Source: a virus
Strand: one strand, 5' to 3'
IMG/VR virus record: IMGVR_UViG_3300007643_000211
Coordinates: 3,099-67,098 of that record
Length of the DNA stretch: 64,000 nt
The position numbers and the translations under genes were made by a program. Shown piece by piece: positions 47,948-51,076 of the stretch (the first letter of the stretch is position 1; every line of letters starts with the position of its first letter). The notes under the pieces are model-generated. The model made no database searches, was not told the DNA's origin, and saw only the letters and a list, made by a program, of their open reading frames with translations.

Positions 47948-48325
47948 GTGGGCTTTCAAAAAGAATCCGAATCAGGCTTCCAATCGAGCGTCCTCGATTT
48001 AGCCAAACTCGAAGGCTGGCATCACGTCCATTTTCGCAAGGTTTTCACGAATGGTCGATGGCAGACTCCAATTCAAGGCATGAAGGGTTCGCCGGATTTA
48101 TTGCTAGCTCGGAATGGTCACATCTTACATATAGAACTGAAGCAGGACGGCGGCGAATTAAGCAAAGAACAGCGCGAGTGGATTGGCGCGATGACTGGCT
48201 CAAGAGTGCCCAAGAAAGTGGATTACGCATTCCAGCGGGTCGGCAGCGATCGTTGTTTCGTTGGCGTTTGGCGTCCGCGGAACTGGGATGATATCGAGGA
48301 AATCTTAACGGAGGTCGGAGTGTGA
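47948..48325 (+). CDS. VRR-NUC-like PD-(D/E)XK nuclease
   Basis: GSPDLLL...IELK..GG.LS.EQ.EWI. Confidence 0.82.
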   Translation: MGFQKESESGFQSSVLDLAKLEGWHHVHFRKVFTNGRWQTPIQGMKGSPDLLLARNGHILHIELKQDGGELSKEQREWIGAMTGSRVPKKVDYAFQRVGSDRCFVGVWRPRNWDDIEEILTEVGV

Positions 48326-49443
48326 CTATCAACACAAAGGTCGAGTGGGCAGACCACACAATAAATTGGTGGTGGGGTTGCGAAAAGGTCAGCCCCGGAT
48401 GCAAGAACTGTTACGCAGAGGGTTTTGCCAAGCGAGTCGGCAACAACATCTGGGGCAAGGGAGAACCGCGACGAGATATCAAGTCGGCGGTGGCGGAAGC
48501 CTTAAAGCTGAACGCCAAGGCTGAAAAAGAGGGTGTGCGATACCGCGTATTCAGCAACTCGATGAGCGACTTTTTTGAAGAGGACAATGGACAAGCTATC
48601 GTTGACCACAAAGGTAATCGGCTTTGCTTTCAGGCTGCGGATAAGAATTGGCAACACATCCTCACTGACGACATTGCGCGTGAGTCTGATGGGTGCATTC
48701 CAGTTACGCTTACTGATATCAGAGAGCAGGCGTTCGAGACCATCGACGCGACTCCACATCTGGATTGGCTGCTGCTAACCAAGCGGCCCGAAAACATTCT
48801 AAGAATGACACCACAGTGGGATTATCACGCATGCAACACGGGAGACTGCCCGCACTCACACAGTGCTAATTGCGTGCCTGTAGATGAGCGTAAGTATCGC
48901 CAAAATGTTTGGCTTGGAACGTCGGTCGAAAGCCAAGAACAAGCCGACAAGCGAATTCCCGAACTGCTCAAGTGCCGGGACTTGTCGCCAGTCCTTTGGT
49001 TGAGTTGCGAGCCGTTGCTGGGTGCTGTTGATCTTGGGAAACCTCATTCAATCGCAACCAATGGCGAATTCGACGACACCGAATACGACGGCCCTTCAAT
49101 TGACTGGGTTATCTGCGGTGGTGAATCAGGTCATGGTGCAAGGCCGATGCACCCGGATTGGGCAAGGGAACTACAGGCTCAATGTGAGGGTTCTGACGTC
49201 CCGTTTTTCTTCAAGCAGTGGGGTGAGTGGTGGCCTCAGTCGATTGGATGTGGGATCGAATACGACTCCACCCGTCCAGTATTGTGGACCTGCCGATGTG
49301 GTCATTCTGTTTATCCAATCACAGACGATAGCTCTTGTGCTTGCGGGGAAGATCTGAACATTGAGCGAATGATAAAGGTCGGCAAGAAAGAAGCCGGCCG
49401 TTTACTCAACGGCAAAGAGCATTCGGAGGTGCCAGATGAGTAA
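48322..49443 (+). CDS. DUF5131 (Gp37/Gp68) family protein
   Basis: TKVEWADHT..WWGCEKVSPGCKNCYA; LLLTKRPEN; WVICGGESG..ARPMHPDW; FFFKQWGEW. Confidence 0.92.
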   Translation: MTINTKVEWADHTINWWWGCEKVSPGCKNCYAEGFAKRVGNNIWGKGEPRRDIKSAVAEALKLNAKAEKEGVRYRVFSNSMSDFFEEDNGQAIVDHKGNRLCFQAADKNWQHILTDDIARESDGCIPVTLTDIREQAFETIDATPHLDWLLLTKRPENILRMTPQWDYHACNTGDCPHSHSANCVPVDERKYRQNVWLGTSVESQEQADKRIPELLKCRDLSPVLWLSCEPLLGAVDLGKPHSIATNGEFDDTEYDGPSIDWVICGGESGHGARPMHPDWARELQAQCEGSDVPFFFKQWGEWWPQSIGCGIEYDSTRPVLWTCRCGHSVYPITDDSSCACGEDLNIERMIKVGKKEAGRLLNGKEHSEVPDE

Positions 49444-49729
49444 ATCTGAGTGTCCAGGCTGCAAGGGGGTAGGCACCATTGACTGCCCAGGCTGCGGGGG
49501 CGGTGACGCCAGTGACTTTTGCCGTGAATGTGACGGAGACGGATGGGCGTGGTGTGAACGATGTCACGGGAATGGACAGATAGATGTGTTCGATGTGTGC
49601 TCCCAGTGCGGGGGCGATGGTCTGGTTAACTGCGAGCACTGTCACGGGGACGGATGCGGTGAGTGTGAACAAGAAGGGTGCGAGGAATGCGGAATTTGCT
49701 TCGGGTGCGGGTTGGATATGGATTCATGA
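49436..49729 (+). CDS. DnaJ-type CxxCxGxG zinc-finger protein
   Basis: Repeated CxxCxGxG motifs. Confidence 0.7.
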   Translation: MSKSECPGCKGVGTIDCPGCGGGDASDFCRECDGDGWAWCERCHGNGQIDVFDVCSQCGGDGLVNCEHCHGDGCGECEQEGCEECGICFGCGLDMDS

Positions 49730-49730
49730 A

Positions 49731-49922
49731 ATGAATAAATCAACGATAAAATCACAGGCTACAATCGTAATAGTCGAGCACGAAAACGGGCTTGTATTTA
49801 TGACGTCGCATGGTTACGGCGCTGCAGAGGAATTAGCGGATTCCGCCGTAAATTTGATAGGTAGTTTTCTTAAAGACCAAATAGAAAAGCGGAACAATGA
49901 AGACGGGGAGATTGATGAATGA
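49731..49922 (+). CDS. Small hypothetical protein
   Basis: Fills gap between zinc finger and methylase; start ATG 49731. Confidence 0.45.
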   Translation: MNKSTIKSQATIVIVEHENGLVFMTSHGYGAAEELADSAVNLIGSFLKDQIEKRNNEDGEIDE

Positions 49923-50706
49923 GCTGGCACTATTCGCAGGCGCTGGTGGCGGAATTCTCGGAGGCAAATTGCTCGGATGGCGAACCGTCTGCGCAGTCGA
50001 AATCGAAGAGTATCCCCGTCGCGTCCTTATGCAGCGGCAAGACGATGGAATCCTCAAACCATTCCCAATCTGGGACGACGTTAGAACATTCAACGGCCGC
50101 GAGTGGCGTGGAGCTGTGGATATCGTCACTGGTGGGTTCCCATGCCAAGACATCTCAGTTGCCGGAGGCGGTGCCGGCATCGACGGAGAGCGAAGCGGGT
50201 TGTGGTCTGAGTTCGCGAGAATCATTCGCGAAGTACGACCCGGATTCGTCTTCGTGGAGAACTCGCCAGCGCTCACTTCTCGGGGGCTGGATCGAGTACT
50301 TGGAGACCTTTCCGAGATGGGGTTCGATGCGGAATGGGGAGTGCTGGGTGCGGACAACGTTGGTGCCCCGCACATTAGAAAACGCATCTGGATTGCTGGT
50401 TGGGACGCCAACGAAATCAATGAGCGTGAGAAGCGAGTCGCACCGCAGGGGGCGGACACCAACACCAGCAGAGATGGCGAAGTATCCGACGCCAACAGTC
50501 CAGGATGCAAGCAACAACGGCGGCCCAAGTCAGAGCAAGCGGAACACACCTCCATTGAATGCGGTGGCTGGTGGGAAGCTGAACCCGATGTGGGTCGAGT
50601 GGTTAATGGGATGGCCCGCCGGGTGGACCAACTTAAAGCCATTGGCAACGGACAAGTTCCGGCAGTGGCTGCACTCGCATGGCGGCTGTTGTCAGGGGGG
50701 AGGTGA
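49915..50706 (+). CDS. C5-cytosine DNA methyltransferase, alpha polypeptide (motifs I-VIII and X)
   Basis: LFAGAGG, GGFPCQDIS, VENSP, APHIRKRIW, LKAIGNGQVP. Confidence 0.92.
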   Translation: MNELALFAGAGGGILGGKLLGWRTVCAVEIEEYPRRVLMQRQDDGILKPFPIWDDVRTFNGREWRGAVDIVTGGFPCQDISVAGGGAGIDGERSGLWSEFARIIREVRPGFVFVENSPALTSRGLDRVLGDLSEMGFDAEWGVLGADNVGAPHIRKRIWIAGWDANEINEREKRVAPQGADTNTSRDGEVSDANSPGCKQQRRPKSEQAEHTSIECGGWWEAEPDVGRVVNGMARRVDQLKAIGNGQVPAVAALAWRLLSGGR

Positions 50707-50710
50707 TTGA
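49919..50710 (+). CDS. C5 methyltransferase beta polypeptide in +1 overlapping frame (motif IX carrier)
   Basis: 263 open codons over the alpha gene; PTPT repeats and LNPMWVEWLMGWPAGWT motif-IX-like segment. Confidence 0.7.
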   Translation: MSWHYSQALVAEFSEANCSDGEPSAQSKSKSIPVASLCSGKTMESSNHSQSGTTLEHSTAASGVELWISSLVGSHAKTSQLPEAVPASTESEAGCGLSSRESFAKYDPDSSSWRTRQRSLLGGWIEYLETFPRWGSMRNGECWVRTTLVPRTLENASGLLVGTPTKSMSVRSESHRRGRTPTPAEMAKYPTPTVQDASNNGGPSQSKRNTPPLNAVAGGKLNPMWVEWLMGWPAGWTNLKPLATDKFRQWLHSHGGCCQGGGD

Positions 50711-51076
50711 ATGAGTAGAAACAGCCCAACTGCAACAAAAGAGCAGGTCCTCCAGTGGCTCGCTGATGAAATATTCGTCACGAAGAATGGCGAGGTATTT
50801 AAAGGGAATCGACGCCTTGCTCAAAGGATCAACTTTCGCAACGGTTGCCAGCATGGTGATCCACGCGTCGACCTACATCACCAAGGGGTGAGGAAGTCGA
50901 TGTCAGTCTCGCATCTTGTGTGGATGCAGCACGCCAGGCAGGTCATTCCAGACGGTTGGGAAATTCACCATCGCAACGGGGACTGCACTAACAATTCGTG
51001 GGAAAACTTAGTCTGCCTACACGCACTTGATCACTACAAGGAACATTACAACTTGGTAGATGAGGTTCCGTTTTAA
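50711..51076 (+). CDS. HNH endonuclease
   Basis: EIHHRNGDCTNNSWENL..L...DH..EH. Confidence 0.85.
   Translation: MSRNSPTATKEQVLQWLADEIFVTKNGEVFKGNRRLAQRINFRNGCQHGDPRVDLHHQGVRKSMSVSHLVWMQHARQVIPDGWEIHHRNGDCTNNSWENLVCLHALDHYKEHYNLVDEVPF

Follow-up and report, generated by a model that had tools for sequence, protein, structure and literature searches.

Two conserved, fully overlapping reading frames of a viral gene probably encode the two chains of one DNA cytosine-5 methyltransferase

In the IMG/VR virus record IMGVR_UViG_3300007643_000211 we have characterized a 0.8-kb gene that probably encodes two proteins from two reading frames of the same strand, the most likely fate of which is assembly into a single DNA cytosine-5 (C5) methyltransferase. 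All positions refer to the window, by which we mean the whole stretch of 64,000 nucleotides (nt) of that record that was analysed, and features lie on the + strand unless stated. The two frames are termed A and B; frame B is co-extensive with frame A, beginning 4 nt later and terminating 4 nt later, with the stop codons being TGA 50704-50706 for frame A and TGA 50708-50710 for frame B. A preliminary description of this DNA had proposed a C5 methyltransferase split over two fully overlapping frames. This split is supported by comparison with homologues, as both passenger regions are open, each frame has conserved residues of its own and the ATG of frame B is conserved. The elements of the gene are as follows.

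49905..49910, + strand: Shine-Dalgarno-like GGGGAG, 4 nt 5' of the frame A ATG and 8 nt 5' of the frame B ATG.
49915..50706, + strand: putative frame A coding sequence (CDS; alpha-like, 263 amino acids plus stop), with a catalytic large domain carrying motifs I-VIII, a passenger linker and motif X.
49919..50710, + strand: putative frame B CDS (beta-like, +1 frame, 263 amino acids plus stop), with an N-terminal part lying over the catalytic domain, a PTP-repeat region, motif IX and a conserved tail.
50131..50148, + strand: frame A motif IV, GGFPCQ, with the catalytic cysteine; read from the translation and near-invariant in alignment A2.
50384..50623, + strand: B-phase segment (frame B residues 156-235) with the PTP repeats up to motif IX, recognized by the entropy switch and by stop avoidance in frame A, for which no more than openness is maintained here up to about its residue 219.
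50576..50629, + strand: frame B motif IX-like KLNPMWVEWLMGWPAGWT, a doubly constrained stretch that overlaps EPDVGRVVNGMARRVDQ of frame A.
50638..50661, + strand: frame A motif X, AIGNGQVP, overlapping the conserved tail PLATDKFRQW of frame B.

The region 49905-49923 reads GGGGAG, ATTG and then ATGAATGAG, with ATG 49915 opening frame A and ATG 49919 opening frame B. The two starts 4 nt apart behind one GGGGAG that had been noticed earlier can thus be read directly in the sequence, as can the openness of the +1 frame for 263 codons, frame B running from 49919 to its TGA at 50708-50710 without a stop. Dual coding across essentially the whole gene, another element of the earlier account, is consistent with the extents of frame A (49915-50706) and frame B (49919-50710). 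An in-frame ATG at 49897 would extend frame A by six residues; the start is likely to be ATG 49915, because homologues begin at MNEL.

The two-frame layout is conserved and is not due to chance. As a null, the synonymous codons of one frame were permuted within each gene. When frame A was permuted in this way for 67 unique related genes (spanning 47-67% G+C), 329 stops were expected in frame B and 33 were seen, whereas the third frame of the same genes had 917 stops against 814 expected. As far as checked, the 33 frame B stops trace to start calls (stops before the frame B ATG) and to comparison loci. Conservation of the +1 frame, on which the preliminary description had made its proposal depend, therefore holds across the 67 genes. 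For the window gene, 6.5 frame B stops were expected and in all 200 permutations the number of stops exceeded that of the real gene; this permutation used the 49897 start, the two stops counted for the real gene lie 5' of the frame B ATG, and the frame B open reading frame (ORF) itself has none. Each of the two passenger regions was also assessed in 40 genes. Over the catalytic part, frame B had 11 stops against 113 expected, the 11 appearing to be due to start calls, and over the recognition part, with the synonymous codons of frame B permuted, frame A had no stops against 92 expected. Because stops are depleted there in both frames, each frame is kept open exactly where it is only a passenger.

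Codon-position entropy, computed on A-based and B-based codon alignments, indicated that selection differs between the frames along the gene:

Frame B residues 1-155: A's third position is the most variable; frame A dominates.
Frame B residues 156-235 (first PTP to GWT): B's third position is the most variable; frame B dominates.
Frame B residue 236 onward: A's third position is the most variable; frame A dominates.

Because the phase of selection switches from A to B and back to A, the order along the DNA is motifs I-VIII, recognition region, IX and X, as in a canonical enzyme, with the middle in the other frame. Individual residues show the same specificity of frame. Pairwise identity in the frame B motif IX is 0.8-0.96 at most positions, against 0.3-0.7 for the overlapping frame A residues and 0.2-0.5 for the null. 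The frame B tail is above null, though it lies over motif X of frame A, at P242, L243, W251 and H255; these tests are indexed by frame A codons, so that a column equals the frame B residue number plus one and the residues are one lower (W250, H254). In the N-terminal part of frame B there are islands above null at M1 and S2, at Y106, W113, T115 and Q117, and at P132, W134, G135 and M137. The threonine at 115 is invariant, which fixes AAC as the codon for the ENV asparagine of frame A. Altogether, about 20 codons are constrained in both frames. In the linker of frame A, from the last motif VIII columns to about W219/W220, conservation is no higher than frame B imposes, and across frame B residues 160-217 it is at null level; selection on frame A resumes, above the frame B null, at W220, R228 and the RVDR before motif X.

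The catalytic elements are found in frame A. Its product matches Pfam PF00145 with an E value of 1.2e-32, covering only profile positions 4-211 of 324, and also matches phrog_363 (E 2e-71) and, by profile, residues 16-177 of M.HhaI (E 6e-23). Motif I is LFAGAGGG, conforming to the FxGxG of S-adenosylmethionine (AdoMet) binding, with G9, G11, G12 and G13 invariant in the alignment. Motif IV, GGFPCQDIS, contains PCQ, with G74, P76 and C77 invariant and G73, F75 and Q78 conserved in at least 90%. Motifs VI and VIII are present as the variants VENSP and APHIRKRIW, with E115, N116 and R157 invariant, and motif X (AIGNGQVP) is close to the C-terminus, with G244, N245 and Q247 invariant. Missing from frame A are motif IX and a recognition domain between motifs VIII and X, which enzymes of the PF00145 family carry on the same chain. 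The translation and the restricted PF00145 match bear out the earlier view of frame A as a chain that has motifs I-VIII as well as X but lacks IX. An AlphaFold2 model from 45 sequences had a mean predicted local distance difference test (pLDDT) of 73.5, with residues 1-175 confident, residues 180-243 below 50 and a confident C-terminal helix (249-260) 3' of motif X. Foldseek placed M.HaeIII and M.HhaI as the top matches to this model, over about 173 columns corresponding to the large domain. The fold of frame A is thus that of the large domain only, and residues 180-243 are predicted to be disordered in the chain alone.

No Pfam or NCBIfam match was obtained with the whole predicted frame B chain or with C-terminal pieces, and a profile of 45 frame B sequences gave only a chance-level match against all PDB sequences. 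There is a match to phrog_1008, a family labelled DNA methyltransferase (E 2e-24). A collection of 5.8 billion proteins contained 3712 relatives of frame B, and a Pfam domain was present in none of the 120 that were listed. A fused single-chain form, with catalytic motifs joined to a B-type C-terminus, was sought among the longest and partly covered relatives, and PF00145 was found in none of 10. The best genome match is a Phycisphaeraceae metagenome-assembled genome with 48% identity, which is too weak to name a host. Frame B carries GTPT, TPTP and YPTPTVQD, followed at residues 220-237 by KLNPMWVEWLMGWPAGWT, with the motif IX-like LNPMWVEWLMGWPAGWT. The preliminary description had frame B ending in such a segment; the segment is there, but it is not the very end of the ORF, as 26 residues follow. 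Modelled alone, frame B was mostly coil and of low confidence (mean pLDDT 53.7), with small hairpins at 105-114 and 135-144 and a motif IX helix at 223-230, these lying in blocks of mean pLDDT 84 and 80.

When both chains were modelled together, the complex scored 0.87 while the best of three controls scored 0.11. The mark for this score is reached by 58 of 80 solved complexes and by two of 110 mismatched pairs. Runs agreed in at least 81% of contacts, the partner pLDDT was at least 60, and the modelled interface involves frame B residues 1-9, 64-75, 106-113, 127-148, 186-198 and 217-255. The model thus speaks for binding without demonstrating it. The structure prediction of a heterodimer that had been suggested as a check therefore came out in favour of association, with two caveats concerning covariation and recall.

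These caveats are among several considerations that weigh against our interpretation. The alignments of A and B derive from the same nucleotides, which produces trivial covariation, and the top contacts (A 138-143 with B 134-137) fall on shared codons. The model may also recall the packing of large and small domains in solved single-chain enzymes, and for both of these reasons the complex score has to be discounted. The permutation null ignores codon-context effects and the kinship of the loci. Frame B matches no Pfam family or solved structure, and because of this the naming of its middle part as a putative recognition domain draws on position, the modularity of the PTP repeats and the adjoining motif IX. 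Finally, translation of both frames, association of the chains and a dependence of methylation on both are what we infer from sequences and models.

How common is the layout? When frames A and B were each searched by tblastn against phage records, the matches coincided in position but were in different frames. Four distant phages proved to have this pair of ORFs, namely Acinetobacter phage ABMM1, Salmonella phage S9-5, Stenotrophomonas phage SOVA965 and a Manatee Spring myovirus, and three of these four have a NTGAATGAG double start with ATG or GTG. For SOVA965 the depositors annotated frame B as the methyltransferase, and ABMM1 has an insertion of about 60 codons that adds PTPxAxD repeats to frame B and low-complexity sequence to frame A. 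A search with frame A retrieved 80 IMG/VR loci (45-67% identical), nearly all of which have an open +1 frame from 4 nt past the start to approximately the end, and a third frame that is broken into short pieces. A scan of bacterial genomes with the frame B motif alone detected 80 loci, spanning Planctomycetota, Verrucomicrobiota, many Proteobacteria, Acidobacteriota, Bacteroidota, Chloroflexota, Patescibacteria and others; at least 64 of the 80 have a complete frame A, including motifs I, IV and X, that overlaps frame B by at least 700 nt.

The start region is similarly maintained. The context NTGAATGA occurs in 42 of 46 loci, the frame B start is always ATG, and the frame A start is ATG in 27, GTG in 13 and TTG in two. 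Purine-rich stretches are located 5' of NTGAATGA in most homologues. In the window, a small upstream ORF terminates at a TGA (49920-49922) that overlaps the start codon of frame B and lies 3 nt after that of frame A, and in other phages the TGA of the upstream gene lies inside ATGAATG. It is reasonable to suppose that both chains would be initiated from one site, possibly by termination-reinitiation.

Variants of the layout were found in Paraburkholderia caffeinilytica at two loci, L119 (1039-2271) and L124 (second chromosome). Frame A terminates in both right after motif VIII, and a frame B of 411 codons comprises the N-terminal part, three PTP repeats, LNPAWVEWLMGWPVGWT, the usual WTRQHG tail and, after it, EPDPW...RAKRIEALGNGQVP, all in one frame. 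The pre-X and X elements (EP...GNGQVP) accordingly sit on the frame B chain, and what is elsewhere a single overlapped stretch for IX and pre-X is here spread over two successive segments. The occurrence of motif X on either chain argues that the chains work as one enzyme, and the variant also shows that the pre-X segment of frame A is a real element and not a mere shadow of motif IX.

Other homologues differ in further ways. At L104 (1125-2111) and L116 (1134-1952) a single stop breaks frame A a short way past motif VIII, with the part bearing motif X continuing in that frame, which may represent an arrangement in three pieces or decay. Homologues L025, L076, L013 and L008 contain homopolymers 9-15 bases long within the two-frame gene, where a change in length would exchange one frame for the other; in the window gene the longest homopolymer is 6. 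In Mycobacterium phages Catdawg, Mori, Familton and Dylan (H63-H66), two 'DNA methylase' CDSs are annotated under one match to the C-terminal part of frame B, and SEA-PHAGES curators may thus already have recorded the two-frame layout in these phages.

We propose that chain A, from ATG 49915, would begin with the catalytic large domain that binds AdoMet (motifs I-VIII), continue through some 55 linker residues without sequence constraint of their own, and end in motif X. Chain B would start at ATG 49919 from the same ribosome-binding site, adjoining the stop codon of the upstream gene. Its first 155 or so residues overlie the catalytic domain with a few conserved islands and, in the model, wrap around chain A; the remainder would supply the PTP-repeat recognition-like region, motif IX and the short conserved tail, corresponding to the small domain of a canonical enzyme. 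A more specific version of this scheme, to which we assign a little better than an even chance, is that two full-length chains with starts 4 nt apart are obligate partners, that the N-terminal 155 residues of B clamp the recognition module on A, that the NTGAATGA double start sets the ratio of the chains, and that this is the standard design of a very large phage and prophage family with one of the longest conserved same-strand dual-coding regions known in prokaryotic viruses.

Among other explanations, the one that survives best is that chain A is a self-sufficient methyltransferase, perhaps of low specificity, and that frame B encodes a separate accessory protein (e.g. with a specificity or regulatory function) and not an obligatory subunit. 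Chain A does hold all of the catalytic and cofactor motifs and folds confidently, and the N-terminal part of frame B resembles nothing known. Moreover, the single-chain enzymes of phages MM1 and 5093, described below, carry a +1 ORF like this N-terminal part, so that a role independent of the split is possible. However, a self-sufficient chain A would have to function without motif IX or a conserved recognition region and with residues 180-243 predicted to be disordered. The motif IX-like segment of frame B lines up by eye with the canonical RKLTPRECWRLQGFPDW of MM1, and motif X is on the B chain in Paraburkholderia. We therefore regard this explanation as unlikely.

A lower probability still attaches to a single canonical methyltransferase produced through two programmed frameshifts, +1 after motif VIII and -1 between motifs IX and X. 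The DNA order of I-VIII in frame A, recognition region and IX in frame B and X in frame A is indeed the canonical one, and a -1 shift in the vicinity of GWT-NLK would bring IX and X together at the canonical distance, comparable to the in-frame IX-X junction of MM1. Such a mechanism would not need frame B to be open over codons 1-155 or frame A to be open through the recognition region, yet the roughly 113 and 92 stops expected there are essentially absent. Nor would it account for the near-invariance of frame B's own ATG, or for the conservation of the B tail after IX and of the A residues before X, each above the constraint of the other frame. The junction sequences vary among homologues with no shared slippery site, and the window gene has no homopolymer longer than 6. 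Two programmed frameshifts thus seem very improbable to us. We give almost no credence to frame B being an untranslated shadow ORF arising from composition or codon usage, or to the locus being a frameshifted pseudogene or a sequencing error: a G+C content of 55-58% in this region does lengthen chance ORFs and the opposite strand carries a third ORF, 301 codons long, but stops are depleted tenfold in frame B while the third same-strand frame is near expectation (917 against 814), the frame B motif IX is more conserved than the frame A residues it overlaps, the layout holds at 47-67% G+C and in hosts belonging to many phyla, only about one homologue in four has the antisense ORF fully open, and the homologous loci are not near-identical copies (frame A is 50-67% identical). 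Double frameshifting, a pseudogene and a composition artefact were all considered and were rejected on these comparative data.

The antisense ORF (49833-50738, minus strand, 301 codons) is open across the whole methyltransferase gene. Its frame is open nearly end to end in about one-quarter of 46 homologues and broken in the remainder, and on this ground it was rejected as a further gene, seeming instead to be a side effect of the two sense frames avoiding stops.

The gene has the following close neighbours.

49733..49922, + strand: small upstream ORF in the third frame, taken from the ORF list and the sequence; its start is a prediction.
50711..51076, + strand: HNH endonuclease gene (PF13392, E 4e-10), its ATG immediately 3' of the frame B TGA.

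At 50695-50713 the frame A stop, the frame B stop and the HNH gene start are packed as TGA T TGA ATG, and the GGGGGGAGG ribosome site of the HNH gene sits within the 3' ends of both frames. The packed stops and start and the position of GGGGGGAGG suggest translational coupling through the gene cluster. Further upstream, between a DUF5131 gene (48322-49443) and the methyltransferase, a cysteine-rich ORF of 97 amino acids (49436-49729) has repeated CxxC pairs and weak matches to zinc-ribbon-like cysteine-rich domains (E of about 1e-3, under Pfam cut-offs).

If our interpretation is correct, thousands of phage and prophage genes listed as one short cytosine methyltransferase, or as a hypothetical protein, code for an enzyme of two subunits. 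Long overlaps on the same strand are disallowed by annotation pipelines, which consequently record only one of the frames. Methylation specificity, anti-restriction capacity and the abilities attributed to short enzymes would then be wrongly predicted for the two-frame methyltransferase family. As a natural data set on protein pairs evolving under shared nucleotides it would also be unusually large, and it includes passenger regions, a region where about 20 codons are constrained twice over, and lineages in which motif X has moved between chains. A separate recognition chain could allow specificity to change without altering the catalytic chain, and there is practical interest for split-methyltransferase tools like those built from M.EcoHK31I (PMC2836561).

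Partial precedents for the layout exist among phages. McDonnell et al. (2017) report a 'total overlap' of C5 methyltransferase ORFs in Streptococcus thermophilus 5093-group phages and cite similar overlaps in Streptococcus pneumoniae phage MM1 and in Tn5252 (PMC5601072). The enzymes of MM1 (L169:7480-8637) and 5093 (L173:6067-7026) are canonical single chains with IX and X in frame and, unlike the window gene, are not split. Their +1 ORF has 141-144 codons over the catalytic part, lacks motif IX and ends in LxDILExxVDEKxFLS; its product resembles the N-terminal part of frame B (FRAKLS, SLKTS, WMNxGMMWNGKC). Paenibacillus larvae phage Shelly is closer to the window gene in its division of motifs: across gp55/gp56 the main frame has motifs I-VIII plus X, and a +1 ORF of 234 codons has PTP repeats and LNPEWVECLMGFPIGWT. 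This ORF is annotated as a second methyltransferase CDS ('g55 internal gene'), and GenBank records of P. larvae phages mark the second frame as an 'internal gene'. Frame B begins 184 nt inside the gene in Shelly, in contrast to +4 nt in the window. No discussion of the internal gene was found in the paper associated with the P. larvae phage records, and no description of the split, full-overlap family or of its scale was found in open-access papers and preprints.

Among characterized enzymes, chain A shares the large-domain fold and motifs of canonical PF00145 enzymes such as M.HhaI and M.HaeIII, and the order of elements along the DNA is the canonical one, but the middle segment is in the other frame and would hence be on a separate polypeptide. 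The C5 methyltransferase M.AquI (CYCGRG; Karreman and de Waard, 1990) has two chains, divided within the variable region; in its description in PMC3404938, the second chain carries IX and X and no long two-frame overlap is mentioned, whereas the window gene keeps X on chain A. The Paraburkholderia locus L119 matches this M.AquI division of motifs (PMC3404938) yet keeps the overlap.

The nearest parallel, and the single case in which such a layout has been proven, is M.EcoHK31I of Escherichia coli HK31 (YGGCCR; Lee, Kam and Shaw, 1995). According to published accounts (PMC2836561, PMC3404938), this is a two-chain C5 methyltransferase in which both chains are required, with beta lying wholly in another frame inside alpha, motifs I-VIII, X and the recognition domain on alpha, and motif IX on beta. 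The window gene likewise is a C5 methyltransferase gene with two frames of the same DNA, both maintained as judged by stop avoidance and frame-specific conservation in 40-67 genes, and likewise has motifs I-VIII and X in one chain and IX in the other. The likeness to M.EcoHK31I drawn in the preliminary description therefore stands for the two frames and for motif IX on the second chain. It does not extend to the short nested beta, since the second frame of the window starts 4 nt after the first and spans the whole gene, giving the frame B chain an extra N-terminal part of about 155 residues; nor does it extend to a recognition domain on alpha, as the recognition-like region of the window is B-phase and under selection in frame B, a distinction made from the published description of M.EcoHK31I and not from its sequence. 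We conclude that the window gene would be an ordinary member of a large and mostly mis-annotated family, a variant of the M.EcoHK31I kind.

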